From Thermoleophilales bacterium (GTDB lineage Bacteria; Actinomycetota; Thermoleophilia; Solirubrobacterales; 70-9), in NCBI GenBank assembly GCA_040375675.1, contig JBEIRY010000001.1:3543-67542 (forward strand): a stretch of 64,000 nt of DNA, given 5' to 3'. The notes beneath the pieces are model-generated. The model was not told where the DNA came from. It did not search any database and worked only from the letters and a program-made list of their open reading frames with translations. Each line of letters opens with the position of its first letter. The stretch's first letter is position 1. The position numbers and the translations under genes were made by a program. This document shows, piece after piece, positions 24,658-38,709 of the stretch.

Positions 24658-25842
24658 TCAGCCGTCGCCGGATGCTCCGGAACCCTTGACCGGAGCGGGC
24701 AAAGGCACGCTACGTCCCTCAGCCTCCCAGCGCGCAACCGTGTGTCGCAGTTGGAAGAAGGCGATGATCCCCGGCGGTATCGGCAGCCAGAAGGCGATTA
24801 CGCGATAGGTCAACACGGCGGCGAATACCTCAGCGGCCGGGATACCGAAGAGAACGAAGGCTCCGATCATCCCGGCATCGACTGCACCCACTCCGCCGGG
24901 TGCGAGCGGAAAGAGGTTCGCAACCATCCCGAGAAAGAACCCTTGGACGATCACCCCGAAAGGAACCTCGACATGGAATGCCTGAAAGCTGGCCCAGAGG
25001 ATCCCTATGTTCGCTGCCCAGAACCCGATCGCGCCGCTGAAGGCGAGGATGCCGCTCTTCGGGTCTTCGGCAAAGGCGAGTGCATCGCGCGTTCCTTGTG
25101 CGAAGGTCGCAGGAGCAGAGGCAGCCTTCTTGGCGAACTTGGCAAATCGTCCCGATAGTGCCCCCTCGATCCGCCCCTCGATATCTCCCGGAAGCAGTGC
25201 CAGCAACGCGACGATCAAGATTGCGGCTCCCGCAAGCGCGGCGGGAATGATCGTCGTTGACACCTTCCCACCCCCGGGCAGCACACCGGTGCGCAACAAA
25301 ACCCCGAACACGATCAAGGCGAACATGTAAACCGAGTAGAGGATCACCAAGAAAGCAACCATCCTGCCGGCAGCCAGCCTGCGCTCCATGCCCGCCTTCC
25401 TAAGCGCCCAGTAGGTAAGGAATATGCCGCCCGCGCCACCAGCAGAGAAGATCCGGGTAGCCGCGAGGCCGGCCATCGTGATCTGGTAGGACTCTGCCCA
25501 GCGCAGGTGGATGATCTTCTCGGCGACGACTCCGCGAAACAGCGCAACGTATGCGGCAAAGGCCAGGATGTTGAACAGCAACGCCACCACGACCCAGTCG
25601 AGGTCTCCCTTCTCGATCGTGCCGAACGCGTCCTCGAGACCGACGAGTCTCGGGAACAGCACGTAGATGGCTACGGTCAAAGCCACGACCGCCAACAGGG
25701 TCTGGATGATGCGCTTGGGGGCTGCGAAGAACTTGGGTTCGGCCTCGGCGAGAACCTGCTCCGGCGACTCCGCGGTCATCTCCTCGGCAAGTTCTTCCTT
25801 CTCTGACTTGGCCTTTTGGGGTTCGTCAGGCACCAGAGTCAC
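24658..25842 (-). CDS. lysylphosphatidylglycerol-synthase-type transmembrane (UPF0104, flippase-like) protein
   Basis: 394-aa polytopic membrane ORF. The pattern, including a PGGVG-type motif (APGGVGAVDAG), is typical of UPF0104. Confidence 0.6.
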   Translation of the reverse strand: MTLVPDEPQKAKSEKEELAEEMTAESPEQVLAEAEPKFFAAPKRIIQTLLAVVALTVAIYVLFPRLVGLEDAFGTIEKGDLDWVVVALLFNILAFAAYVALFRGVVAEKIIHLRWAESYQITMAGLAATRIFSAGGAGGIFLTYWALRKAGMERRLAAGRMVAFLVILYSVYMFALIVFGVLLRTGVLPGGGKVSTTIIPAALAGAAILIVALLALLPGDIEGRIEGALSGRFAKFAKKAASAPATFAQGTRDALAFAEDPKSGILAFSGAIGFWAANIGILWASFQAFHVEVPFGVIVQGFFLGMVANLFPLAPGGVGAVDAGMIGAFVLFGIPAAEVFAAVLTYRVIAFWLPIPPGIIAFFQLRHTVARWEAEGRSVPLPAPVKGSGASGDG

Positions 25843-26796
25843 CTACGCGTTGGCGATGTCCTCCAGGGTTCGGAGCCGATCGCTGACCATCTCCGCCACC
25901 GGCTCAAATCGAGGATCGAGGAACCGCACAGCGGCAACCAGCGCAGCGCCTGCGGCCAGATCAGTTACGTAGTGCTCGCCGAGGTAGACGAGAGCAAAGC
26001 CGAGAGTCAGGGCGTAGGCCCATCCAATCGCGCCATCGATCTTTCCTGTCTCGGAGAGAAGAATCGCTGCCATCAGCGCGCTGGCAAAGTGGAGCGACGG
26101 CATCGCCGCCCACGGATTGCCGTCGAAGGTTCCGTACAAGCGCTCCCATGCAGGACCCCATGTGTCCTCCCCTACTTCGGTCATGATCCGCCGGACGCGG
26201 TCGGGGGTGTACCCCTCCTGAGAGGCCCACCACGGAGGAGCGGTGGGGACCACGGCATAGCCAACGCAACCGATGTCGTAGACCGCTGCGGTCTGACGAG
26301 CGGCCCTGGCGAAGGTTTCTGGCTTGCGGGCCATGATCCAGATCAACGCACCATGCGGCCAGAAGAACCAGAGCCAATGGGCCCAGGAGAGCGACTTGTC
26401 CAGAGCGTTGCCGCGTCCAAGCCCCGAGAGTGCCTCCTGAAGTCTGGTATTCGGAAGCTTGCCACGGCCGATGGCAGTGTCGATCCGAATCGGATACTTG
26501 ATCTTGACCCGCCGCCGAAGCGCCTCCGGGTCGTCGTATGGAAGCTCATGGGAGACGATGAACGCCCAGCCCTGAAGGAAGTAGAGAGCAAGGTCACGGG
26601 CCGGGGTGCGCCTAGAGAGAACCGCAAGCGCAGGGGGACCAGAGGCAACAGCAGCGGCTGTCGCAGCCGGGGGAATCTTCAGCTGCTTGCGGACCAAAGG
26701 CACTACGGCTGCAGCACCGAGCGCCGCAAATGCGGCTCCCCGCACCAGTGGACGCAATCTGGTGCGCTGCGGTGGTTGGCGGTCCGCTCTATACAC
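25843..26796 (-). CDS. PAP2-superfamily (PAP2_3 / inositolphosphotransferase-like) membrane protein, start uncertain
   Basis: The C-terminal motifs PSLHFASAL and GEHYVTD are PAP2-type. There is no in-frame ATG near the expected N-terminus, so I propose the GTG at 26796. The longer ORF to 27210 would overlap the divergent epimerase gene. Confidence 0.6.
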   Translation of the reverse strand: MYRADRQPPQRTRLRPLVRGAAFAALGAAAVVPLVRKQLKIPPAATAAAVASGPPALAVLSRRTPARDLALYFLQGWAFIVSHELPYDDPEALRRRVKIKYPIRIDTAIGRGKLPNTRLQEALSGLGRGNALDKSLSWAHWLWFFWPHGALIWIMARKPETFARAARQTAAVYDIGCVGYAVVPTAPPWWASQEGYTPDRVRRIMTEVGEDTWGPAWERLYGTFDGNPWAAMPSLHFASALMAAILLSETGKIDGAIGWAYALTLGFALVYLGEHYVTDLAAGAALVAAVRFLDPRFEPVAEMVSDRLRTLEDIANA

Positions 26797-26853
26797 AGGC
26801 GTGGCGAGTATAAGTCGGTAAGAGGAATCCCCGCGCAACCGAACGGCCGCCAA

Positions 26854-27828
26854 ATGACCGAGACAGACAATTCGAACCTCGAGGGAAAGACTCTGGCCGT
26901 CACCGGCGCAGGGGGATTCATTGGGTCCGCCGTCTGCCAGCGGGCAAGCCAAGAGGGAGCGAAGGTGATCGGCCTCGACAGGGACCGCGAGGCGATCGAG
27001 AGGGCCCGCACAGCAGGAGCAACCGAGGTAATAGAAGGCGACGTGGTCGACCGCAATGCGGTGGCCCGCGCGATCTCCGGAGCCGACCTGGTGGTTCATA
27101 CGGCAGCCAACGTGAGGGAATGGGGTTCGATGGAGGACTTCATCGAAGTCAACGTGGCCGGTACGGCAAACGTGCTCGACTCGGCACCGGAAGGCGCGCG
27201 GATCGTTCACCTCAGTTCCGTAGTCGTCTACGGCTACGACGACCCAAGCACCCAGGACGAGTCGGCTTCACTCAGATCTGTGGGGATCCCGTATGTAGAC
27301 ACCAAGGCGGCATCGGATCGTCTCGCCAGAGAGCGACGAGCGGTCGTCATCAGGCCGGGAGATGTCTACGGGCCAGGCTCGGTTCCCTGGGTGGTCCGGC
27401 CGCTTCAGCTGATGAAAAAGCGAATCCTCGCGGTTCCCAAGGAGTCCTGGATGCTTCCAGTCTTCGTCGATGATCTAGTCGACGCGATCATGCTCGGACT
27501 CGAATCCGGCAAGCCGGGAGAGGCCTACACCGCCTGGAGCGGCGAACAGGTCACCTTCGCCGAGTACTTCGATCGGCTCGCCTTGGCCGCCGGACTACGT
27601 CCCCCTCTGAGGCTTCCCACCCCGGCCCTCTGGTTGGTGGGCGCTCTCGCCGAGGGGAGCGCACGCCTTACCCGACGGCCCCCTGCAATCGGCAGGTTCG
27701 GAGCAACCTTCATCTCCCGCTCGGGTGATGTGTCGAACGAGAAGCTCAGAGAGGGCCTCGGTTGGGTTCCCAAGGTGACGATCGACGAAGGAATCGCCCG
27801 CAGCGTGGCTGGTCGAGAGCACGAGTAA
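26854..27828 (+). CDS. NAD-dependent epimerase/dehydratase family protein
   Basis: I place the start at MTETDNSNLEGKTLAVTGAGGFIGSAV (GxxGxxG motif). The YVDTK catalytic Tyr-x3-Lys is present. The upstream part of the 670-aa ORF is antisense to the PAP2 gene. Confidence 0.8.
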   Translation: MTETDNSNLEGKTLAVTGAGGFIGSAVCQRASQEGAKVIGLDRDREAIERARTAGATEVIEGDVVDRNAVARAISGADLVVHTAANVREWGSMEDFIEVNVAGTANVLDSAPEGARIVHLSSVVVYGYDDPSTQDESASLRSVGIPYVDTKAASDRLARERRAVVIRPGDVYGPGSVPWVVRPLQLMKKRILAVPKESWMLPVFVDDLVDAIMLGLESGKPGEAYTAWSGEQVTFAEYFDRLALAAGLRPPLRLPTPALWLVGALAEGSARLTRRPPAIGRFGATFISRSGDVSNEKLREGLGWVPKVTIDEGIARSVAGREHE

Positions 27829-27935: not shown

Positions 27936-28355
27936 ATGAAATTGGCAGCAGCCAAGAAGAAGGCATCGAACATGGGTCCCTCCGGCTGGGCAGCATTTGC
28001 CGGCGTAATCCTGTTCGTGGTCGGCGTGTTCAACGTCCTGTACGGACTGGCAGCACTGCTCAATGACAGCCAGGTGCTGGTCACGAACGGCCACGACGGA
28101 GTGCTGATCTGGAACCTGACCACCTGGGGCTGGATACACCTGGTGATCGGAGCAGTCATGGTCGCCGTCAGCATCGGGCTGTTCGCAGTCAAGGAGTGGG
28201 CGCGCGTAATCGCAGTCATCTTCTGCGTACTGAGCGCAATCGCCCATATCGGTCTGATCACCGCGTTCCCGCTGTGGTCGATCCTGATCATCGTCCTCGA
28301 CGTGCTGGTGATTTACAACCTCACGGTCAAGGGCGGGGAGATGAAGACCGCTTAG
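27936..28355 (+). CDS. small 4-TM membrane protein (DUF7144-like)
   Basis: 139-aa ORF with an AAGGAG Shine-Dalgarno upstream. The GWAAFAGVILFVVGVFNVLYGLAAL pattern recalls an actinobacterial conserved membrane family. Confidence 0.6.
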   Translation: MKLAAAKKKASNMGPSGWAAFAGVILFVVGVFNVLYGLAALLNDSQVLVTNGHDGVLIWNLTTWGWIHLVIGAVMVAVSIGLFAVKEWARVIAVIFCVLSAIAHIGLITAFPLWSILIIVLDVLVIYNLTVKGGEMKTA

Positions 28356-28387
28356 CACCGCAGATAAGCAAGAGAAACGACGCAGGT

Positions 28388-28443
28388 CTCGACCCGCGTC
28401 GGTGGACCCTTATCGGGCTCGCCGGCGCGGGTCGAGTTTGTTC
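28388..28443 (+). terminator. possible hairpin terminator after the DUF7144-like gene
   Basis: An 11-bp perfect inverted repeat, CTCGACCCGCG ... CGCGGGTCGAG, is followed by TTTGTT. The loop is long (27 nt), so confidence is modest. Confidence 0.35.
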
Positions 28444-28518
28444 GTATCGCACTAATCGAAGCTGAGATGGCCGCTCGGGAAGCCTCACCGACCGCGGGCT
28501 GAATAGAATGGGCGCGTC

Positions 28519-29298
28519 TTGCTCGCACCAGATCCCGCCAGCTCAAGCACCGGTTCCGAGATCAACACCCTGTACTGGATCGCGCTTGCGATCGCGGCAG
28601 TGTTGGTCCTGCTGATCAATGCCGGTTTGATCGTGATGTTCCTGCGCGGTCGCGCTTCGAGGGGCGACCAGCCCAAGCCTGCAAGATCCAAACGCGGTTC
28701 GACCTTGGTGATTGGTGCTGTGCTCGCAGCACTCGCGGCCGCGATCTTCGTGGTCGGGATCATCTACACGGAGGGAGCGGGGGTCGAGACCACCGCCGCA
28801 TCAGCCGCAGACAGCGAAAGCCAGATGACAGGCGACGACACCGAAGCCAAGGCCGCTCGTGGAGAACAAACGCTCGAAGTCCTTGCATCAGGTCAACAGT
28901 GGATCTGGCGATACCAGTACCCGGATGGCACCTTCTCGTATTACGAACTCGTTCTGCCGGTCGGGCAACCGGTCAGGATCGACCTCGAATCAACCGATGT
29001 ACTCCATCGCTGGTGGATTCCCGGGTTGACCCAGAAGGCCGATGCCGTGCCGGGCAAAACCCATGTCCTGAGCTTCACCCCCGACAAGGAGGGGACATTC
29101 AAGGGAGCCTCTTACGCATTCTCCGGGTCCAACTACGCCACGATGAGGACAGTGGTCAGGGTCGTCTCGCAAGATGAGTTCAACCGCTGGCTCGATGACC
29201 AGGGTGCCGAAATCGCCTCGGCTCAGAAGTGGGTGCAGGACGAGATCGCCAAGAACGGTCCTTACGGCGCAATCGAGAAGGCAGGGGCCGAAAAGTGA
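28519..29298 (+). CDS. heme-copper oxidase subunit II-like protein lacking the CuA centre
   Basis: 259-aa ORF with a TTG start. It has two N-terminal TM helices and a cupredoxin domain (QQWIWRYQY, DVLHRWWIPGL). The CuA motif CxExCGxxHxxM is replaced by SYAFSGSNYATM. Confidence 0.85.
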   Translation: MLAPDPASSSTGSEINTLYWIALAIAAVLVLLINAGLIVMFLRGRASRGDQPKPARSKRGSTLVIGAVLAALAAAIFVVGIIYTEGAGVETTAASAADSESQMTGDDTEAKAARGEQTLEVLASGQQWIWRYQYPDGTFSYYELVLPVGQPVRIDLESTDVLHRWWIPGLTQKADAVPGKTHVLSFTPDKEGTFKGASYAFSGSNYATMRTVVRVVSQDEFNRWLDDQGAEIASAQKWVQDEIAKNGPYGAIEKAGAEK

Positions 29299-30983
29299 GA
29301 GATCCGATCAATACCCATCCCGAAGTCGCGGTTCAGGGGGTCAGCTCCAAGCGTCCAGGGTGGATGAGCTTTGCGACCAGTTCCGACCACAAGGATGTCG
29401 GAAGGATCTATATCGGCGCCGCGCTTGGCTTCCTCGCGCTGGCAGCAGTCGAGTTCTTCCTGATGCGTCTGCAGTTGATGGTCCCTGACAACACACTGAT
29501 AGCTCCGGTCACCTTCAACCGCCTGCTTTCCGTCTTCGGAGTGACCCTGACCTCCCTGTTCGTACTGCCCCTCGCAATGGGTCTGATCACCTACCTCCTG
29601 CCCCTGCAGATCGGTGCGCGCTCGCTCGCGTTCCCCCGTCTGGCGACCGTTGCTCTCTGGCTCTTCTTGACCGGAGGGGCCTTGACCTACATCTCCTTCT
29701 TCTACACGCCCCCCGAAGCAGGCCCGCTCGGCCTCCCTCCGCTCTCTGGCGACCTGGCCTTCATCGACAACAACGGAACCGATGTCTGGATTGCCACCGT
29801 CGGGCTCTCCACACTCGGTCTCGTGCTGCAGGCGATCAACATCGTCGTCACCGCCTCGCGCGAGCGCGCGCCGGGTATGGCCTGGAGGCGATTCCCGACC
29901 TTCGCGTTCTCTGGCGTGGTCAGCTCCTGGCTGCTGCTCGTAGTAGGACCGGCGATGATCGCGGGCTTGACCATGCTGATGATCGACCGCCACTACGGCG
30001 GAGTCTTCTTCAATTCCGGAGAAAGCGGCTCCCCCACCTACTTCGAACACCTCAGCTCGATCTTCACGACCGGCGTCTATCTGATCACTCTGATCACCGC
30101 GATCGGCGCGATCTCGGAAATCCTGCAGACCTTCGCCGGAAGAGCTCTCCCACACAGGCGCGCGGTCTCACGTTCGCTCGTCGCCATAGCGGTTCTCGGG
30201 TCTCTGGCCTGGATGCAGAACATGATGTCGGCCGAGATCCGCATCGGCTTCCTCTACGCCGCGATGGCCTTTGCCCTGGCGCTCATCGTGCCCATAGGCA
30301 TCGTCTTCTGGAACTGGTTCGGAGTACTTGCTTCAGGCTCGATCAAGCTGCGCGCGCCGGTCGTCTTTGCGGTCGGCGCGATCTCCCTGCTCAGCCTCGG
30401 ACTCGCCGGCGAGATGATGCAGAGCCTGATCCCGGTCAACTGGCTGCTGGCCGGCACTACCGACTCGACAGCAGAGACGGGCCTGGTGCTGATCGGCGGA
30501 TCGGTCATGGCCGGATTTGCAGCGCTGCACTACTGGATACCGAAGATGACCGGTCGTGAGGTCGGTGAGGGAACTGGCAAGGTCTCTGCGGTCGTGATCT
30601 ACCTGAGTGCCCTCGTCATCTGCGCCTGCCTGTTCCTCGCCGGACTCAACGGACAGCCGGCCGATACCTACAGGTTCTATGCAGGAGAAGGTCTCGATAC
30701 CTACAACCTGATCGCATCGATCGCGGCGATCGTGCTGATGCTCGGGATCTTGACCGAGCTGACGAACATCACGCTGAGCGTCCACCACGGCCGGCGCGTT
30801 GGCCACGATCCATGGGGCGGCTCGACACTCGAATGGTTCGCCCTCTCGCCTCCGCCCGCTCACAACTTCGACCTGGTACCTGATGTCCGCTCGAGCGAGC
30901 CGATGTCCGACATCAGGCGCGGAATAGAACGTGATTCGGCTGAAGCCGCCGAGACGGCCAAGGTCGCTGAGCCGGTAGCCTAG
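29295..30983 (+). CDS. heme-copper oxidase subunit I-like 12-TM protein lacking all heme and CuB histidine ligands
   Basis: The GTG start overlaps the subunit II-like stop (GTGA). It aligns almost without gaps to the canonical CtaD in this window and keeps the DHK, AFPRL, RAPGM, GGSV, HYWIPK and STLEW motifs. All six ligand His residues are substituted (see findings). Confidence 0.85.
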   Translation: MRDPINTHPEVAVQGVSSKRPGWMSFATSSDHKDVGRIYIGAALGFLALAAVEFFLMRLQLMVPDNTLIAPVTFNRLLSVFGVTLTSLFVLPLAMGLITYLLPLQIGARSLAFPRLATVALWLFLTGGALTYISFFYTPPEAGPLGLPPLSGDLAFIDNNGTDVWIATVGLSTLGLVLQAINIVVTASRERAPGMAWRRFPTFAFSGVVSSWLLLVVGPAMIAGLTMLMIDRHYGGVFFNSGESGSPTYFEHLSSIFTTGVYLITLITAIGAISEILQTFAGRALPHRRAVSRSLVAIAVLGSLAWMQNMMSAEIRIGFLYAAMAFALALIVPIGIVFWNWFGVLASGSIKLRAPVVFAVGAISLLSLGLAGEMMQSLIPVNWLLAGTTDSTAETGLVLIGGSVMAGFAALHYWIPKMTGREVGEGTGKVSAVVIYLSALVICACLFLAGLNGQPADTYRFYAGEGLDTYNLIASIAAIVLMLGILTELTNITLSVHHGRRVGHDPWGGSTLEWFALSPPPAHNFDLVPDVRSSEPMSDIRRGIERDSAEAAETAKVAEPVA

Positions 30984-30987
30984 GGTC

Positions 30988-32007
30988 ATGCAGAACCCTC
31001 GCGCAGGCGAGGCCCTGCGCCGGTTTAGGCGCCTCGCCCTGGTAACAGCAGTTGTGACTTTCCTCCTCGTCGTAGTCGGCGGGATAGTCCGTGTCAGCGA
31101 GTCCGGTCTGGGCTGCGGCCCTTCCGGCAGCGGACTGCACGGATGGCCGCTTTGCGGAGGACAGGTGCTGCCGGTCGTTGGCGACGAGGCGCTTTTCGTC
31201 GAGTTTTCACACCGCTTCCTCGCAGGGGTTGTCGTGCTGCTGATCGCAGTGATGATCTGGCTTGCCTTCCGCGATCTGCGTGAGCTGCGCTGGCCGGTGC
31301 GCGGATCTATTGCGGTTGGTGTCTTGGTGCTCTGCCAAGCGGCCCTGGGCGGCCTGACGGTCGAATACAACCTCTACGAGGCCCTGGTGGCCGCACACCT
31401 CTGTCTGGCGATGATCTGTTTCGGTTTGCTGATCTGGCTCACCGTCGCCGCTGGCGACTCTGAACGCGTCGACGCAGGCGAAAAGCCAAGGGCGCCGATC
31501 TCGAAACTGAAGCCGTTCGTCTTTACCGCTGCCGGCTTCCTGCTTGCCTCGATGGTTGCCGGCTCATACATGGCCGGAACCGAAAAGCTCGGCTCCGATG
31601 GAGCGGCGGCCGAGGGGGCACACATGGCCTGCGGTAACCAGTTCCCCGGCTGCCTCAACAAAGGCGTGCTGCCATTTGGCACCAACGAACTGATCGACAT
31701 CCACCTGACCCACCGCGTGCTCGTCTACTGCGCTGCGCTGGCGATCATCGTGCTCTTGATTGCTGCGTGGAGGCTGGGTTCGCGCAGCAAGCTGCTGCTG
31801 CTGGCAGGTGGGCTGCTGACCCTGCAGATCGCACTTGGCGGGATGAATGTATGGCTCGGCGAGCATGCCGTGCTCGTAGTTGCACACCTTGCTACCGCTG
31901 TTGCCCTCTGGACCTCGATCCTGCTGATCGGCTACACGCAGGCGCTCTCGCCTGCAGCCGCTCCCAAGACAAAGAGGAGCCGGAATACAAAAGCAGTGGC
32001 TGCCTAG
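30988..32007 (+). CDS. ctaA: heme A synthase (COX15/CtaA family)
   Basis: 339-aa, 8-TM ORF. Cys pairs occur in GLGCGPSG..WPLCGG, and His motifs in FSHRFLAG and HLTHRVLVY. Confidence 0.85.
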   Translation: MQNPRAGEALRRFRRLALVTAVVTFLLVVVGGIVRVSESGLGCGPSGSGLHGWPLCGGQVLPVVGDEALFVEFSHRFLAGVVVLLIAVMIWLAFRDLRELRWPVRGSIAVGVLVLCQAALGGLTVEYNLYEALVAAHLCLAMICFGLLIWLTVAAGDSERVDAGEKPRAPISKLKPFVFTAAGFLLASMVAGSYMAGTEKLGSDGAAAEGAHMACGNQFPGCLNKGVLPFGTNELIDIHLTHRVLVYCAALAIIVLLIAAWRLGSRSKLLLLAGGLLTLQIALGGMNVWLGEHAVLVVAHLATAVALWTSILLIGYTQALSPAAAPKTKRSRNTKAVAA

Positions 32008-32008
32008 G

Positions 32009-33016
32009 ATGCGTACCGAAACGACAACTCCTTCGAGCCCCACCTCCAGATCCGCCAGCGGGGAACCCGCCACGACCAACGGCAACGGGGTGCCGGCCAA
32101 GAGCAGCCTCAACGCAACGACCACCAGTAGTTCGCAAGATGGCGTAATGCGCAGGGCGATCAGCACGGCAAACGACTACGTGACCCTGACCAAGCCGAGG
32201 ATCATCTCGCTGCTGCTGCTCACCACGGTCGCAACCATGTTCGTTGCAGATCCCTCCGGCCCCGGCATCGGGACCATCCTCTGGACGATGCTCGGTGGAT
32301 ACCTCGCTGCAGGAGGCGCCGGGGCAATCAACCACTACCTCGAGCGCGACACCGACTCGCGAATGGAGCGCACCCGAGGCAGGCCGCTGGCATCAGGGCG
32401 GATCAGCCCGCTCAAGGGGCTGGCTTTCGGAATCGCCCTGGGCACCCTGGCAACGGTTCAGCTGGCCATCACGGTCAACCCGCTTGCGGCAGCGCTGTCG
32501 CTGGCCGGACTGCTTGGCTACGTGTTCGTATACACGCTCTGGCTCAAGCCGCGGACACCGGAAAACATCGTTCTCGGAGGAGCTGCCGGAGCCATACCCC
32601 CATTGGTCGGCTGGGCTGCGGCCACCGGTGGCCTGACCCTGGATGCCTTCTGGCCATTTGCGGTTGTCTTCTTCTGGACTCCACCCCACTTCTGGGCGCT
32701 CTCGCTGCTGATATCCGACGACTACGCCAAGACCGGCACGCCAATGCTCCCGAACGTCCGAGGCGAAGCAACTACCAGGCAGCGGATCCTCCTCTACACG
32801 CTGGTGCTGACCGCAGTCAGCCTGGCGCCGTTCTTCACTGGGCTGTTTGGATCGCTCTATCTGATCTCGGCATCTGTACTCGGAGGAGTGTTCATCGCCG
32901 GAAGCATCGCCCTGATAAGGCGTCCCTCGCGCGAATCGGCACGGAATCTCTACCTCTGGTCGCTTGCTTACCTGGCACTGCTCTTCTGCACTATGGCCCT
33001 CGACCGCGTCCTATAA
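32009..33016 (+). CDS. ctaB: protoheme IX farnesyltransferase (heme O synthase)
   Basis: UbiA-family protein with YVTLTKPRIISLLLLTT and a NHYLERDTD-type Asp-rich motif. The ATG is 1 nt after the ctaA stop. An alternative internal start at 32147 (MRRAIST) would remove a low-complexity leader. Confidence 0.88.
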   Translation: MRTETTTPSSPTSRSASGEPATTNGNGVPAKSSLNATTTSSSQDGVMRRAISTANDYVTLTKPRIISLLLLTTVATMFVADPSGPGIGTILWTMLGGYLAAGGAGAINHYLERDTDSRMERTRGRPLASGRISPLKGLAFGIALGTLATVQLAITVNPLAAALSLAGLLGYVFVYTLWLKPRTPENIVLGGAAGAIPPLVGWAAATGGLTLDAFWPFAVVFFWTPPHFWALSLLISDDYAKTGTPMLPNVRGEATTRQRILLYTLVLTAVSLAPFFTGLFGSLYLISASVLGGVFIAGSIALIRRPSRESARNLYLWSLAYLALLFCTMALDRVL

Positions 33017-33029
33017 GGTTCCTCTCGTA

Positions 33030-33140
33030 ATGGATCGCAATCGAGCACGCTCAAACATCAAGTCCGGCCTGTGGGCTGGGGCCCTTGCCCTGTTCGTTTT
33101 TGCCGCCGCCTTCTACATCGCAGTCCTCTACCTCGCATGA
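33030..33140 (+). CDS. 36-aa single-pass membrane peptide (not in ORF track)
   Basis: Hand translation gives MDRNRARSNIKSGLWAGALALFVFAAAFYIAVLYLA followed by a stop. It lies 13 nt after ctaB, and its stop overlaps the next ATG (ATGA). Confidence 0.4.
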   Translation: MDRNRARSNIKSGLWAGALALFVFAAAFYIAVLYLA

Positions 33141-33379
33141 GTCAACCCGAGAAGCCGTCAGAGCTGATCTACCTGCCCGCTCCCACCGCGCTACCGGTGA
33201 TCCTGGCGATCGGAATCGCATTGATCGTGTTCGGAACATTTGCCTGGTGGCCCTACGCGGCTCTAGGCGGCATCCTGGCCATAGGAGCCTTCATCGCCTG
33301 GATGCGGAAGAACCGCACGGATATTGCCCGTATGCCGCGCGAGCAGGAGGAAACTCCGGCTCGCATACCTCTTCGCTGA
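33137..33379 (+). CDS. 80-aa two-helix membrane protein
   Basis: I place the start at the ATG giving MSQPEKPSELIYLPAPTALPVILAIGIALIVFGTFAWWPYAALGGILAIGAFIAWMRK. It is translationally coupled to the preceding micro-ORF. Confidence 0.5.
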   Translation: MSQPEKPSELIYLPAPTALPVILAIGIALIVFGTFAWWPYAALGGILAIGAFIAWMRKNRTDIARMPREQEETPARIPLR

Positions 33380-33485
33380 GCGCTCCTTACCCGCTGATCA
33401 TCGCTCGTGCGATTAGTCGCAAGCGCGGCCGAAAACAGGGCAGGCTGACGGAGCGTGGTCAGGCTCTCCCGATAGGATTAGGGCA

Positions 33486-34163
33486 ATGAATCGTCCCAAG
33501 TCCTTCGGAGCATTTCTGCGCATTGGTATCGGGCTCGTCGCCACAGCTTCCCTCGTGGCCCTCTCTGGCTGCGACCTCCAAGAAGACGCAGACACCGCCC
33601 GTGGTGAACAACTCTTCGTCCAGAAGTGCGGCAGCTGCCACGCCCTGACCGCGGCCGGCACGCAGGCAAACGTCGGACCAAACCTCGACTACGCCTTCAA
33701 AGCCTCCAGGGCGATCGGTGCGGACCAGGACACGATCGAGGGCATCGTCACTCACCAGATCGAGTACCCGCGCCCCGCCGACCCGAAAGACACCCACCTC
33801 TACATGCCGGCGAATCTGGTCGAAGGCAATGACCTGAAAGACGTTGCCGCATACGTAGCGAGCGTGGCAGGCGTACCGGGAATCAAGCCCCCGCAGTTCG
33901 TGCCTGAGGAGTTCTTCGTATCCAACTGCGGCGGCTGCCACATACTCTCGGCTGCAGGCACGCAGGGCGTAACCGGACCGAATCTCGACAACAGCCTTTC
34001 CGGGCAAACTCCGGATTGGATCCAGAATGCGATCGTCAACCCCAACAGCGAGATCGCTGCCGGCTATCAGGCCGGGGTGATGCCACAGAACTTCGGTCAG
34101 GTAATGACGCCTGACCAGCTGAAGAAGCTAGTCGACTACCTCGAGAAGTCAGTCAACGGCTGA
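33486..34163 (+). CDS. diheme c-type cytochrome lipoprotein
   Basis: 225-aa ORF with a lipobox signal (VALSGC). It has two CxxCH motifs (CGSCH, CGGCH), each followed by a distal MP Met (LYMPANL, GVMPQNF). Confidence 0.85.
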   Translation: MNRPKSFGAFLRIGIGLVATASLVALSGCDLQEDADTARGEQLFVQKCGSCHALTAAGTQANVGPNLDYAFKASRAIGADQDTIEGIVTHQIEYPRPADPKDTHLYMPANLVEGNDLKDVAAYVASVAGVPGIKPPQFVPEEFFVSNCGGCHILSAAGTQGVTGPNLDNSLSGQTPDWIQNAIVNPNSEIAAGYQAGVMPQNFGQVMTPDQLKKLVDYLEKSVNG

Positions 34164-34168
34164 CCTCT

Positions 34169-34351
34169 TCACCGGCGAGGGGTTTTCGCGCCCTCGTCTG
34201 TCTCATCCGGAGACGCAACCCACCTGCGTAGCCAGATCACGACCCTGATCAGGGCGACAGCGATCAGCAGGCCAGCCAGGATTGCGGCAGCAAGGCCAGA
34301 GACGAGAACCGCCAGCGCTACGACTACTGCCCCCGAGACGAGAACCATCAC
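34169..34351 (-). CDS. 60-aa two-helix membrane protein downstream of ctaE
   Basis: The ORF is almost entirely hydrophobic (VSGAVVVALAVLVSGLAAAILAGLLIAVALIRVVIWL). It is on the same strand as the cta operon, 97 nt downstream. It could be a small oxidase subunit, but this is unproven. Confidence 0.4.
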   Translation of the reverse strand: MMVLVSGAVVVALAVLVSGLAAAILAGLLIAVALIRVVIWLRRWVASPDETDEGAKTPRR

Positions 34352-34448: not shown

Positions 34449-35078
34449 CTAGAGGACGTAGACGGTGACGAAGACGATCACCCACATCACGTCGACGAAG
34501 TGCCAATAGATACTCGGCAGTTCGAGTCCGCGGTGATCTTCAGCCTTCGGCCCGAAGTGGCCGCGCCACAACCGCACGTTGACGATGGTGAGGAGGATGA
34601 GACCGACGATCACGTGGGCGCCGTGGAGGCCGGTCAGACCGTAGAAGATCGAACCGAAGGCACCGTCACGGGCGCTGAATCCTACGTGGATGTACTCGTT
34701 GAGCTGAATGAAAAGGAAGGTGGCACCCAACAGCCAGGTAACCGCCATCGCAGCCGTCGCGGCCCTGCGATTGCCTCGACGAATACCTTCAAGCGCCCAG
34801 TGAATCGTGAAGCTCGATGAGACCAGGATCGCCGTATTGACCCCCGCCACGACAACCGGTAGCTCATACGGGGACGGCGGCCACGGGCCGTCGTTGACCA
34901 CCACCCGCAGGAAGAAGTAGGAGGCAAAGAACGCGCCGAAGAGCATCGCCTCGGTGACGAGGAAGATCAGCAATCCGAGCGTGGTCTGGTCGACCTTCGA
35001 GCTCTTGTTGGCCTCGGGTGGCCCGTGATGGTGATGGTCGTCTGTTGCGTGACCCAAGCTCACGGATGCGCTCTCCAT
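34449..35078 (-). CDS. ctaE: cytochrome c oxidase subunit III
   Basis: 209-aa ORF with the FYGLTGLHGAHVIVGL motif and the terminal HFVDVMWV motif. Confidence 0.88.
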   Translation of the reverse strand: MESASVSLGHATDDHHHHGPPEANKSSKVDQTTLGLLIFLVTEAMLFGAFFASYFFLRVVVNDGPWPPSPYELPVVVAGVNTAILVSSSFTIHWALEGIRRGNRRAATAAMAVTWLLGATFLFIQLNEYIHVGFSARDGAFGSIFYGLTGLHGAHVIVGLILLTIVNVRLWRGHFGPKAEDHRGLELPSIYWHFVDVMWVIVFVTVYVL

Positions 35079-36025
35079 CAGGCCTCCTCGTCCTCTGTGT
35101 CGCTTTCTGACCCTACTGCTGCCAGGGCCGCGGACCTTGCAGCTGAAACCCTCGCACGGCGGCCGGAGGACTCGATGTGCTCTACCGGTTTACCGGTCGC
35201 CTTCTCGGCCTCCTGTACCAGCCCCTGCTCGATCCATTCGGACTTTTCGCCCTTCAGCGTCGAGATCAGGATGTCGTCGAGGCGGTAGTGCTCGTTTGCG
35301 TTACGAATCGCAGTGAGGGGGTCTGGACTCATCGGCTGACCAGTTGCATCGATCTCCTTGTCGTACATGGCGCTCAAGGTCCGCGCCAGGTTCTCGCAGA
35401 TCTCCTCGCGACTTACCTCGCCTGAGCGCGGTGCGATGAAGGTGTATCGGTGGGGGCTCTTCTCTGCCCGCTCGATCAGCCTGCTGACGAGCTCCTGACT
35501 GTTGATCGTCTTGGTCGCGACGACGAGGGTGTGGGTGATGTCCCAGTTAACGCCGTCCTCGTCCACGCGAACCGGAATGTGTTCGATCGGAACCTCGTAG
35601 CGAGAGCGTGCCCAGTCCACGAAATCACGGCGAAGAGGGCCGAAACGGGTCTCGTAGAGACACGAGAGGAGCACCCGGTCGGGATTGGTCGCCCGAATTG
35701 CATCATCGAGGGCCAGAGGCGGATCGGGGTCCATGACTCCACCAACAGAGGGGATTCCGAACTCGCCGAGGACCTGCGAGGTGACATCCACCCTGCTCTG
35801 GGCGGAGTCCCTTGCCTGATCGGGATCGACGATCTGACCTACGTCAGGCTCGTTCTGCGGCGCTATGACGCCAAAGTAGTCAGCACCTGCATCGGTCATC
35901 TCACGACAGGCGTTGAGAAGCTTTCGCCCACCAGCCACCTCGTTGAGGAATACGAGAACACGCTTCTCCTCACCGCTGCGCGGCGGATTGTCAGGCTGCG
36001 GATAGTTGGTATCCGAGTCGCTCAC
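35078..36025 (-). CDS. tandem USP-like (adenine-nucleotide-alpha-hydrolase-like fold) cytoplasmic protein embedded in the cta operon
   Basis: 315-aa soluble ORF made of two internally repeated halves. Examples of the repeat are VLVFLNE.. / TLVVATKT.. and MDPDPPLALDDAIRATNPDRVLLSCL / MSPDPLTAIRNANEHYRLDDILISTL. It overlaps the ctaD stop (ATGA) and the ctaE start (TGATG). Confidence 0.6.
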   Translation of the reverse strand: MSDSDTNYPQPDNPPRSGEEKRVLVFLNEVAGGRKLLNACREMTDAGADYFGVIAPQNEPDVGQIVDPDQARDSAQSRVDVTSQVLGEFGIPSVGGVMDPDPPLALDDAIRATNPDRVLLSCLYETRFGPLRRDFVDWARSRYEVPIEHIPVRVDEDGVNWDITHTLVVATKTINSQELVSRLIERAEKSPHRYTFIAPRSGEVSREEICENLARTLSAMYDKEIDATGQPMSPDPLTAIRNANEHYRLDDILISTLKGEKSEWIEQGLVQEAEKATGKPVEHIESSGRRARVSAARSAALAAVGSESDTEDEEA

Positions 36026-37941
36026 GGACCGGATCCCACAGAGCCGACAGTTGCCGGTTTGGGCTGCTCGACAGTTGCCTGGTCTTCGCCGGCGAGGATC
36101 GCGTGACGCGCGCCAGGTACACCGAACTCATACGGGCCGCCAACCACGCGGGGGATCTCGTCGAAGTTGAACACCGGTGGGGGCGAAGAGACCAGCCACT
36201 CGATCGTGTTCGCGCGCCACGGGTTGGCACTTGCCTTCGGGCCGTACTTCCAGCTGACGGCCATGTTGTAGACGAAGACAATCTGGGCGAGGCCGAGTAT
36301 TGCCGACGCGATCGAGATCTCCAAGTTCCATGCAGCGAACTCGGATGAGTAGTCAGCCACTCGACGGGGCATACCCTCGAGGCCGATCCAGTGCATCGGG
36401 ATGAAGGTTCCGAACATGCCCACGAGCGTCAACCAGAAGTGGATGCGGCCGAGACGCTCGTCGTACATCCGGCCGGTGATCTTGGGGAACCAGTGGTAGA
36501 GGCCAGCGAAGATCGTGAATACCGACCCACCGAAGAGTACGAAGTGGATATGAGCAACCACGAAGTAGGTGTCGGAGATGTGGATATCGAGCGGAACCAT
36601 TCCGAGCATCACGCCGGAAATTCCACCAATCACGAAAGTGAAGATGAACCCCAGAGAAAACAGCATCGCCGTTGATTGCAGGTGGATCTTTCCCTTGAAC
36701 AGGGTTCCGAGCCAGGAGAAGATCTTGATTCCCGTCGGCACCGCGATCAACATCGTCGTGATCATCATCGGAACGCGCAGCCAACTGGACATACCCGAGA
36801 CGAACATGTGGTGAGCCCAGACCGAGTAACTCAGAACGACGATCCCGATGAGTGCCAAGGCCATCAGTCGGTAACCGAAGACCGGTTTACGCGCGTGGGT
36901 GGAGATGACCTCTGAAATGATCCCGAAGCCCGGCAACATCATGATGTAGACGGCCGGGTGCGAGTAGAACCAGAAGATGTGCTGATAGCTGATCACGTCT
37001 CCTCCCATCGCAGCCTGGAAGAAGTTGGTGTTGAGCACGCGGTCGAAGAGGACCATGAACTGCACGCCGGCAATGAACGGGGTTGCAGCGACTACCAGCA
37101 GCGAGGTCGAGAGGTTTGCCCAGACGAGCAGCGGCATACGCCAGAAGTTCATGCCAGGCGCCCGCATCGTCACGATCGTGACCAGGAAGTTGATTGCGGT
37201 GGCGATGGATGAGGCCCCCGCGAACTGAACCGCGAGGTTGAAGAAGCTCTGTCCGACGGGCGCGCCGGTAGAGAGCGGCGCGTAGCCGGTCCAACCGGCG
37301 TCGAAAGTGCCGCCCGGAGCAAAGTAGCTGGCAATGAGCAATGCCCCGGCACATGGCAGCAGCCAGAAGCTGAGCGCATTGAGTCGCGGGAACGCCATAT
37401 CCGGCGCACCGATCATCAGCGGCAGGACATAGTTAGCAATGCCGGCGAACATCGGTATGACGAAGACGAAAATCATGAACGCGGCATGGGTGGAAAAGAG
37501 TCCGTTGTAGGTGTTGGGATCGACCAGCTGGGTGCCTGGCTGGGCGAGCTCGGCGCGGACTCCCATTGCGGCCAATCCACCTACGAGGAAGAAGAAGAAG
37601 GTCAGGACCATGTACTGGATCCCGATCACCTTGTGGTCGGTGTTTACCTTGAAGTAGTCCTTCCAACTGGAGGCGCCATGATCGGCGTGGTCATCAGGCA
37701 CGGTAGGCGCACCAGCAACCCAGCGCAGCCAGTAGTCGAAGCATCCGATCCCCCAGAGGAAGCCGAGCGGGCCGGTGATCAGTGCAACCACCAGCTGGGG
37801 GTAGCCGGTTTGCTCGGTCTGAATCAGCGGCAGGCCCGACGCCGCGCGCAGGGCCACCACGAGTCCGTACCCGAAGGCTGCGCCGATTACTAGTCCGTAG
37901 AGGGCGCGCCACCAACCTGCTTGTCTAAGTGCTACCGGCAT
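36022..37941 (-). CDS. ctaD: cytochrome c oxidase subunit I, A2-type, with N-terminal two-helix extension
   Basis: 639-aa ORF. All ligand motifs are present: STHAAF, YSHPAVY, WAHHMF and AHIHF. The YSHPAV motif replaces GHPEV, which marks it as A2-type. DHK appears only at about residue 102. Confidence 0.95.
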   Translation of the reverse strand: MPVALRQAGWWRALYGLVIGAAFGYGLVVALRAASGLPLIQTEQTGYPQLVVALITGPLGFLWGIGCFDYWLRWVAGAPTVPDDHADHGASSWKDYFKVNTDHKVIGIQYMVLTFFFFLVGGLAAMGVRAELAQPGTQLVDPNTYNGLFSTHAAFMIFVFVIPMFAGIANYVLPLMIGAPDMAFPRLNALSFWLLPCAGALLIASYFAPGGTFDAGWTGYAPLSTGAPVGQSFFNLAVQFAGASSIATAINFLVTIVTMRAPGMNFWRMPLLVWANLSTSLLVVAATPFIAGVQFMVLFDRVLNTNFFQAAMGGDVISYQHIFWFYSHPAVYIMMLPGFGIISEVISTHARKPVFGYRLMALALIGIVVLSYSVWAHHMFVSGMSSWLRVPMMITTMLIAVPTGIKIFSWLGTLFKGKIHLQSTAMLFSLGFIFTFVIGGISGVMLGMVPLDIHISDTYFVVAHIHFVLFGGSVFTIFAGLYHWFPKITGRMYDERLGRIHFWLTLVGMFGTFIPMHWIGLEGMPRRVADYSSEFAAWNLEISIASAILGLAQIVFVYNMAVSWKYGPKASANPWRANTIEWLVSSPPPVFNFDEIPRVVGGPYEFGVPGARHAILAGEDQATVEQPKPATVGSVGSGP

Positions 37942-37971
37942 TGGTTCCTCTCTTTGCTCATCTTAGTTTTC

Positions 37972-38709
37972 TCAGACATCGTTGCCATCCTCGGGTCGGT
38001 CAGGGACCTGATCCTGCTGGCTGACCCACTTCTCGAAGGCTGATTGCGACTCGACGACTACCGGCGCGCGCATCACGCCGTGACCCGCTCCGCAGAGTTC
38101 GGTGCAGACGAGCTGGAAATCGCCTTGCTTGTTGGGAGTGACGAAGAGATGAGTGGTGACGCCGGGGACGTTGTCCTTCTTGACTCTCCACTCCGGCACC
38201 CAGAAGGAGTGGATCACATCGAGGGCGTGCATACGAAACTCCACCTGGCGACCGACGGGTACATGGAGTTCATAGGCGCTTGCATTCTGCTGTCGGTAAT
38301 CGAAGGACCACTCGAACTGCTGCGAGTAGACATCGACCACCAGCCGGTTGGGCTCTTTGCCCTCGATCTCGTCGAGAACGACCCACGAGTAGCCGCCGAG
38401 GAAGAGGACGATGATCGTCGGGATCAGCGTCCAGACGATCTCCAACTTGGTGTTGCCGTGGATCGGCTCGCCGTCCGAGAGGTCGCCCGGCTTGGCACGC
38501 CAACGCCAGACGAAGTAGATCAACGCAACCATCACGAGAGAGAAGACGAAGCAGGAGATGACGATCGTGACCGTCAGGAGATTGTCGATCGGCCCCGCCG
38601 CGGTGGAGGCAGCCGGACCGTTCCAGTCCGGAATCAGCATCAGGTACGTGCTGATCACCGTCAGGACGATCGTGGCGCAAAAGAGCTTGAGAACTGTCAG
38701 TCGGCTCAT
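37972..38709 (-). CDS. ctaC: cytochrome c oxidase subunit II (CuA-containing, no fused cytochrome c)
   Basis: 245-aa ORF with two TM helices and a cupredoxin domain. The CuA ligand set is complete: DVIHSFWVP ... CTELCGAGHGVM. Confidence 0.93.
   Translation of the reverse strand: MSRLTVLKLFCATIVLTVISTYLMLIPDWNGPAASTAAGPIDNLLTVTIVISCFVFSLVMVALIYFVWRWRAKPGDLSDGEPIHGNTKLEIVWTLIPTIIVLFLGGYSWVVLDEIEGKEPNRLVVDVYSQQFEWSFDYRQQNASAYELHVPVGRQVEFRMHALDVIHSFWVPEWRVKKDNVPGVTTHLFVTPNKQGDFQLVCTELCGAGHGVMRAPVVVESQSAFEKWVSQQDQVPDRPEDGNDV

Follow-up and report, generated by a model that had tools for sequence, protein, structure and literature searches.

What are two cytochrome oxidase genes doing at the head of a heme A operon when their products have lost the residues that hold the cofactors? 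This question is raised by a 64,000-nucleotide (nt) stretch of a Thermoleophilales bacterium genome (GenBank assembly GCA_040375675.1, contig JBEIRY010000001.1), referred to below as the window, to which all coordinates apply; related loci that we fetched are numbered from L001 onward. On the plus strand of the window, a cox2-like gene (cox2L; 28519-29298; 259 amino acids [aa]; match to PF00116 at 1.4e-17) runs into a cox1-like gene (cox1L; 29295-30983; 562 aa; match to PF00115 at 5e-71, covering model positions 2-436 of 436). Genes for the heme A and heme O synthases and for two small membrane proteins of 36 and 80 aa follow. An earlier interpretation of this DNA (the sequence-only reading) had called the encoded pair, Cox2L and Cox1L, redox dead and had proposed, from its coupling to the heme genes, a role in heme a hand-off, in assembly, or as a regulator or decoy for a working oxidase encoded nearby. 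The object that emerged from our analysis is a retained, cofactor-free oxidase core, with a live-to-dead series in one syntenic slot.

Loss of cofactor ligands in an intact oxidase fold

Aligned to the live CtaD encoded nearby, Cox1L carries Phe, Thr, Gln, Asn, Glu and Gly at the six positions of the histidine ligands. The tyrosine of the cross-link is replaced by leucine, the arginine pair that binds the heme propionates has been lost (GMPRR to GQPAD), the Mg ligands are gone, and both proton channels are altered (GAxD to GARS in the D-channel and GIK to GIV in the K-channel). All of the 120 closest sequence clusters also have residues other than histidine at the six ligand positions of Cox1L. 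Against the CtaD model TIGR02891, Cox1L scores 347 bits, compared with a cutoff of 671.

Cox2L consists of two N-terminal transmembrane (TM) helices and a cupredoxin domain. In an alignment to the live CtaC, the CuA ligands H, C, (E), C, H and M are read as H, S, A, S, Y and M, and the Glu of the Mg site is Ala; the first His, the Met and a QQWxW motif are kept. The substitutions that destroy CuA (Cys, Cys and His to Ser, Ser and Tyr, and Glu to Ala) are common to 79 to 80 of 81 Cox2L relatives (75 to 80 of 81 when all six positions are counted), and the score of Cox2L against TIGR02866 (CoxB), 145.3 bits, lies just below the cutoff of 147.7. The earlier description of the pair as redox dead is thus borne out residue by residue in both subunits. 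With the ligands, the channels and CuA replaced, electron transfer and O2 reduction as they are known are impossible for this pair.

The overall architecture has outlasted these losses. An AlphaFold (AF2) model of Cox1L (pLDDT 73, pTM 0.78) has the 12-TM fold of subunit I, and Foldseek aligned it to A-type subunit I structures (2gsm, 1ar1 and 7q21) with TM-scores of 0.80 to 0.84. As modeled, the 12-helix subunit-I fold is retained. We do not file the pair as an oxidase but, as far as its sequence allows, as a non-catalytic form of the A-type oxidase core, since the fold and sequence comparisons agree with such a core and the cofactor sites do not. About half of the dead loci (L031-L080) form a subclade that keeps a single histidine in TM10 and has a tyrosine at the heme a position in TM2 (Y-T/S-Q-N-A-H). 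In principle this Tyr/His pair could still ligate heme; the clade of the window has neither residue.

To describe what has been conserved, we compared 240 dead Cox1L members with 115 live orthologs position by position. Both sets conserve 103 positions. Another 101 positions, invariant in the live set, are relaxed or replaced in the dead family, with all cofactor and channel residues among them. Solely in the dead family, 37 positions are conserved, and about 20 of these are fixed replacements of live-invariant residues (including His308Gln, Ala307Met, Pro260Gly, Gly370Leu, Gly373Glu, Met454Gln, Arg457Asp, Met105Gln and Gly198Arg). Across the 240 dead sequences, in which identity falls to 40%, conservation reaches 93% or more at over 130 positions, and it extends to the cytoplasmic C-terminal tail of Cox1L. 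The fixed replacements point to a remodeled, stabilized and selected apo-protein rather than to drift.

A family under purifying selection

A protein search recovered at least 120 clusters at 57 to 99% identity to Cox1L, all of them without the six histidines. Where a cluster had an organism name, this was in every case a Solirubrobacterales or Actinomycetota metagenome-assembled genome (MAG). Searching from a divergent member widened the family to about 40% identity, still inside the Solirubrobacterales. With one genome taken per species, at least 419 stretches encode a relative, or roughly 400 Solirubrobacterales genomes at species level. The nearest live Cox1 among 1.84 billion representatives scored 428 bits versus 458 to 685 bits for the outliers of the family.

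The ratio of nonsynonymous to synonymous substitution rates (dN/dS) between the window and its closest relative was 0.09 for cox1L and 0.12 for cox2L; over 12 other pairs, the medians were 0.18 and 0.22. These values are similar to those of ctaA, ctaB and the cytochrome c gene downstream. For comparison, the live ctaD gave 0.03 to 0.08 and the two micro-open reading frames (ORFs) for the small membrane proteins 0.08 to 0.25 (0.085 for the 36-aa ORF), so that these, too, are under purifying selection. Decaying pseudogenes are ruled out by these ratios, by the family-specific invariant positions and by the intact ORFs in 80 of 80 loci (the best 80 of the at least 419, on which the linkage counts given below are also based, smaller denominators being the loci with enough flank). 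The comparisons indicate that the pair is a conserved family under purifying selection and not in decay.

Degenerate Cox1 proteins may occur in further lineages. In one large MAFFT alignment, other COX1-family proteins (P0222, P0225, P0250, P0264, P0241, P0154, P0184 and others) apparently keep only the two histidines of the low-spin heme, in patterns such as HRVGNH and HRAGQH, and have lost the ligands of CuB and of the high-spin heme.

Descent in place from a working oxidase

Where did the pair come from? Cox1L matches six-histidine CtaDs of 563 to 578 aa with 425 to 435 bits, several of them from Solirubrobacteraceae or Thermoleophilaceae MAGs, whereas its match to the window's own CtaD reaches 210 bits and that to mycobacterial CtaD 235 bits. 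A duplication of the neighboring live ctaCD is therefore ruled out, as the syntenic live orthologs are so much closer. We fetched five loci with live genes (L085, L086, L088, L089 and L090), and all five start with the order COX2-COX1-(CtaA)-CtaB. Upstream of the live loci lie minus-strand Pyr_redox and LPG-synthase genes, as in the window, except that this upstream block is absent from L090. A PAP2 gene is part of the block in L085, L086 and L088 and is missing in L089 and in L087, the intermediate locus described below. CuA is intact (QCAELCG..H..M) in the three live COX2 proteins that were aligned. The live loci differ in their small ORFs: L090 has ORFs of 36 and 81 aa that overlap by 4 nt, L086 has a 36-aa homolog with the motif MDRxxAR (found by tblastn) and a 75-aa ORF, L088 has the 36-aa ORF only, L089 has an 83-aa ORF known by its length and position, and L085 has neither. 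Homologs of the 80-aa protein were found in L086, L087 and L090. In fold, in the 4-nt overlap of the gene pair, in the slot and in the downstream genes, the pair resembles the A-type aa3 core encoded by the short CtaD operons (563 to 578 aa) of other Thermoleophilia.

The same slot also holds an intermediate. In the lineage P0127/P0388 (locus L087, 3378-6027), Cox1 keeps only the histidines of TM2 and TM6 (HHLRYG), and its Cox2 partner has a complete CuA site; two clusters of this lineage are known, both from Logan assemblies. A neighbor-joining (NJ) tree placed the dead sequences in one clade, the dead and intermediate sequences together, and both with the live orthologs, the second oxidase falling outside, each in 100 of 100 bootstraps. 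The clade of live orthologs holds both HPEVY and YSHP motifs, which fits an A1 as well as an A2 origin of the dead pair. From synteny and sequence, the pair is very probably non-catalytic and, by position, the ortholog of a working oxidase, having degenerated where it stood. The word "paralog" used in the sequence-only reading is apt only relative to the neighboring second oxidase; relative to the live oxidase of the slot, the pair is an ortholog by position.

Since live orthologs in the same slot share the layout, the linkage to ctaA and ctaB and to the two small proteins is ancestral. Both small proteins, by the same comparison of loci, belong to the ancestral oxidase operon and were not added with the dead state. 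Gene order alone is consequently no evidence for a new role in heme a hand-off, and the step that had been taken from tight ctaA/ctaB coupling to a new function loses its footing, because live orthologs already have the same operon.

Linkage within the dead lineage

The coupling itself is real and widespread. The genes cox2L and cox1L are adjacent in 80 of 80 loci, with a junction of -4 in 57 and of -1 in 12. The next gene after cox1L is ctaB, or ctaA and then ctaB, in 72 of 73 loci. The linkage, on which the sequence-only reading depended, therefore holds in related genomes. Between cox1L and ctaB, ctaA is present in 31 of 73 loci; elsewhere, a ctaA with 29% identity stands after the cytochrome c gene. 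A 4-nt overlap joins the ORFs of 36 and 80 aa in 33 of 44 loci, and a subfamily at 43% identity has an identical layout.

In the window, cox2L and cox1L overlap by 4 nt (GTGA), and 4 nt separate cox1L from ctaA (30988-32007, plus strand), the gene for heme A synthase. CtaA matches PF02628 (COX15-CtaA) at 1.2e-35, with 123.6 bits against a gathering score of 29.9. Its translation has histidines in four helices (EFSHRF, AAHLCL, LTHRVL and VAHLAT) and both extracytoplasmic Cys pairs. After 1 nt follows ctaB (32009-33016, plus strand), for heme O synthase, which exceeds the curated cutoffs of NF003349 (7e-109; 363.8 bits, cutoff 246) and TIGR01473 (325 bits, cutoff 210.3) and has a low-complexity N-terminal extension of about 46 aa. 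One gene caller used an alternative start at Met47 in one relative, which would open a gap of about 140 nt; the long form is supported by the ATGA overlap of ctaA and ctaB and by a conserved N-terminal peptide in 20 of 28 relatives.

The 36-aa ORF (33030-33140, plus strand) begins 13 nt after ctaB and overlaps the 80-aa ORF (33137-33379, plus strand) by 4 nt (ATGA). Both were also predicted by independent gene calls on the contigs of relatives. The 36-aa protein, with one TM helix and the motif MDRxxAR, is a conserved family (52 loci) that has no match to a known family; the nearest approach was a subthreshold hit to Coa3_cc (E=0.058) in 2 of 10 members. The 80-aa protein has two TM helices and is probably a half-size, CtaF-like subunit IV, judging from profile searches. 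The best PDB match of its family profile was the CtaF chain 9wcx_m (E=0.13, below threshold), and the Pfam family matched by most members was PF12270 (Cyt_c_ox_IV; 5 of 10, best E=0.0038, below threshold). It aligns with the C-terminal two helices of CtaF, and both proteins are encoded in oxidase operons; in size it differs, with 2 TM helices in 80 aa versus the 139 aa of chain 9wcx_m.

The diheme cytochrome c gene (33486-34163, plus strand) starts 106 nt after the 80-aa ORF. Its product has a lipoprotein-type signal (..LSGC) and two cytochrome c domains with one CxxCH motif each (CGSCH and CGGCH), and PF00034 and PF13442 both hit it in two places. Over nearly its whole length, it also aligns weakly with the QcrC family NF050122 (1.3e-9). 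In most relatives, a minus-strand gene for a 133-aa CBS-pair protein separates the cytochrome c gene from the 80-aa ORF. This CBS-pair gene is missing at 33380-33485 in the window and in L001 and, by comparison with L002-L080 and L084, is taken to have been lost from these two. L087 and L090 likewise carry it behind the first operon, and in L088 it is found further downstream. With this opposite-strand gene in between in most relatives, the diheme cytochrome c gene counts as a conserved neighbor that generally forms a transcription unit of its own, and it probably does so in the window as well. The gene order and the six gaps listed in the sequence-only reading (-4, 4, 1, 13, -4 and 106 nt) agree exactly with the ORF coordinates. 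Of the seven-gene operon proposed there, the first six genes have gaps that fit coupling; the cytochrome c gene drops out, given the intervening CBS-pair gene in most relatives.

The intergenic region upstream of the operon (28356-28518, 163 nt, plus strand) is the presumed promoter region. A terminator-like hairpin inside it was assigned to the DUF7144 gene upstream. A sigma-70 consensus was not found there, in a scan that is uninformative for an actinobacterium with 62% GC; overall, neither the scans for promoter and terminator motifs nor the folding of the 106-nt gap yielded a usable signal. The DUF7144 gene (27936-28355, plus strand; 4.1e-34) directly precedes the operon in the window, in L001 and in L081-L083 and is missing from the remaining loci inspected. 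Further upstream, a mechanically called 670-aa ORF (25816-27828, plus strand) is probably not a single gene: its match to an NAD-dependent epimerase covers only residues 358-571, and relatives have at this place a 334-aa epimerase gene with a minus-strand PAP2 gene under the N-terminal half.

The live oxidase next door

Downstream, the operon converges, as had been noted earlier, on a second and live oxidase operon on the minus strand (34449-38709; ctaE, 34449-35078; X, 35078-36025; ctaD, 36022-37941; ctaC, 37972-38709). This CtaD (639 aa) has the six histidines, the YS motif and the residues of the D- and K-channels and is, by sequence, a complete enzyme. In the dead lineage, the live operon is convergent in 46 of 56 loci. 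Working versions of the two oxidases coexist in L088, L089 and L090, where the second oxidase lies on the same strand a few kilobases downstream of the first operon and has a COX1 of about 635 to 648 aa followed by X, with COX3 next in L089 and L090. The coexistence of two oxidases hence predates the death of the first. Another reading, which tied the loss of the first oxidase to an unfused CtaC and a separate diheme cytochrome c in the second, is ruled out, because in live loci, too, the second CtaC can be unfused (L090) and the cytochrome c separate (L089).

The X gene, for a protein of 315 aa, lies between the live ctaD and ctaE with overlaps of 4 and 1 nt, and no Pfam, NCBIfam or PDB relative of it was found. 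A gene for 276 to 298 aa that has no Pfam match follows the COX1 of the second oxidase in L084, L088, L089 and L090, and X homologs with 51 to 89% identity were found by tblastn in loci of the dead lineage (dN/dS 0.06 to 0.12). X seems to consist of two repeated alpha/beta halves, is probably cytoplasmic, and may be an unrecognized oxidase-associated factor. Just downstream of ctaE, a 60-aa hydrophobic ORF (34169-34351, minus strand) shows weak positional and sequence conservation in about 10 loci. At its position, the relatives L081 and L090 have called genes of 58 to 69 aa, and it may be a further small oxidase subunit.

Why has the dead core been kept?

The explanation that we favor, at slightly better than even, combines descent in place with retention as a non-redox platform. 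The six genes at 28519-33379 very probably descend in place from a genuine Thermoleophilia oxidase operon of the order ctaC-ctaD-(ctaA)-ctaB-36aa-CtaF-like. In one large Solirubrobacterales lineage, the catalytic subunits were stripped of CuA, CuB, the two hemes, the Mg site and the D- and K-channels, and the fold, the 4-nt translational coupling and purifying selection were kept. Cox2L and Cox1L are predicted to pair up in the membrane as a non-redox heterodimer, which the 36-aa and CtaF-like proteins probably join. Their long-standing co-translated partners, CtaB/CtaA and the small subunits, would still need the pair as a structural or assembly platform, and through these partners the supply of heme a to the neighboring live oxidase would be served. 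That the cofactor-free core is a dedicated non-redox membrane machine, either a platform for heme a delivery by CtaB/CtaA or the keystone of a supercomplex, is a tentative proposal that falls somewhat short of even; the platform role taken by itself is doubtful. Several observations weigh against the favored explanation. No histidine or other obvious axial ligand is common to the whole dead family, which leaves stable heme binding and heme a hand-off chemically unsupported. Purifying selection on the pair is two to three times weaker than on live ctaD, ctaA lies outside the operon in about half of the lineage, and in the NJ tree the grouping of the dead clade with the intermediate could reflect long-branch attraction. 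The assembly or scaffold role suggested by the sequence-only reading may still apply, by virtue of retention under purifying selection, although gene order no longer speaks for it. A decoy or regulatory role has no support; nothing suggests a regulatory domain.

How do the competing accounts fare? Actinobacterial complexes III and IV are mutually dependent, and the dead module could be a fossil of a supercomplex, kept as a docking or stabilizing partner of a bcc-type complex III, as in the obligate III2IV2 supercomplex of actinobacteria, or of the live oxidase, with the lipid-anchored diheme cytochrome c carrying electrons past the module. Among solved structures, the CtaDs of actinobacterial III2IV2 supercomplexes come closest, the 80-aa protein resembles the CtaF of such a supercomplex, and the nearby cytochrome c aligns weakly, near full length, to the QcrC family; conservation of the 103 structural positions and of the cytoplasmic tail would also fit. 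We nevertheless consider this unlikely, as no qcr or alternative complex III (ACIII) genes are present in the window or in the fetched loci. The search of the window for qcr, ACIII, Surf1 and CtaG returned housekeeping genes only. Could the pair instead be a passenger, translated because the essential ctaA and ctaB are coupled behind it and selected only for intact, harmless folding, with no function of its own? Overlaps or gaps of 4 to 5 nt do join cox2L, cox1L and ctaA/ctaB throughout the lineage. The 101 relaxed positions and the elevated dN/dS relative to live ctaD are what such a passenger would show, and the surviving histidines differ among sublineages in a way that resembles unordered decay after inactivation. 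Yet a dN/dS of 0.09 to 0.22, close to the values for ctaA, ctaB and the gene for cytochrome c, more than 130 positions held at 93% or above, and 37 dead-specific positions, many of them fixed replacements of live-invariant residues, are hard to reconcile with it. A deletion fusing the promoter to ctaB would lift the burden, and still no recovered locus is without the pair (about 400 species, in a search seeded with the pair); we regard a mere passenger as quite unlikely.

The original proposal, in which a look-alike was recruited beside the heme O and heme A synthases to take up, store or pass on heme a, or to serve as a decoy or regulator of the real oxidase, is improbable. The tight coupling to ctaB, often shared by ctaA, and the near-constant presence of a live, heme A-requiring oxidase as a neighbor favor it; however, the coupling is older than the cofactor loss, and in the clade of the window both axial histidine pairs, the propionate-binding arginine pair and the Mg-site residues are gone. 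Least of all do we expect new chemistry or transport, with the old binuclear site binding a cation, Cu(I) or a small polar ligand, which is very improbable. Residues for such a site might be supplied by a polar cluster of Thr (TM6), Gln-Asn (TM7) and, in part of the family, Asp/Glu (TM10), by a Met-x-x-Met in TM7 and by a new buried Glu in TM9. Q308, M307/M310, E373 and D457 are fixed family-wide, with Thr/Ser at the position of a CuB histidine, and His, Tyr and Met are conserved at the old CuA site in about 75 to 80 of 81 Cox2L sequences. The same pattern would be expected, however, if polar residues simply replaced the metal-ligand bonds that hold helices together, and no transporter or metal-binding site emerged as a homolog.

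Precedents and implications

Non-catalytic paralogs serving as scaffolds or structural subunits are known from other systems, such as NifEN relative to NifDK and the bc1 core proteins relative to MPP. As in those cases, a catalytic module has been duplicated or replaced, and the version kept by selection stands beside cofactor-biosynthesis genes. NifEN differs in that it keeps its cluster ligands and demonstrably carries a cofactor precursor, whereas Cox1L and Cox2L have no such ligands left.

Within the heme-copper oxidase (HCO) superfamily, a precedent for ligand loss is offered by CyoA/QoxA, subunit II of the quinol oxidases; CyoA is a cupredoxin without CuA. In gNOR, one active-site histidine is replaced, and this family has been called the first to do so, the active-site histidines being completely conserved otherwise (Murali et al., preprint 10.1101/2021.10.15.464467). 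Quinol oxidases and gNOR nevertheless keep both hemes, an active-site metal and catalysis, and the pair described here retains none of these ligands. An established HCO classifier discards sequences without the six histidines (Sousa et al. 2011, PMC3084760), and such a filter leaves a dead family unrecorded. In the literature, we found no description of an HCO without ligands, nor anything on the oxidases of Solirubrobacterales or Thermoleophilia.

For work on these bacteria, the practical lesson is that an ancestral linkage to heme A genes is not to be read as a new function. Hundreds of soil MAGs list dead Cox1L proteins under the annotation "cytochrome c oxidase subunit I", which inflates the aerobic capacity inferred for them. 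An evolutionary series from a live enzyme through two of six histidines to one of six and none is visible, and live, half-dead and dead versions in the same operon amount to a natural experiment on the non-catalytic role of the oxidase core. If the core does act as a non-redox machine, it would be the first pseudoenzyme member of the HCO superfamily.

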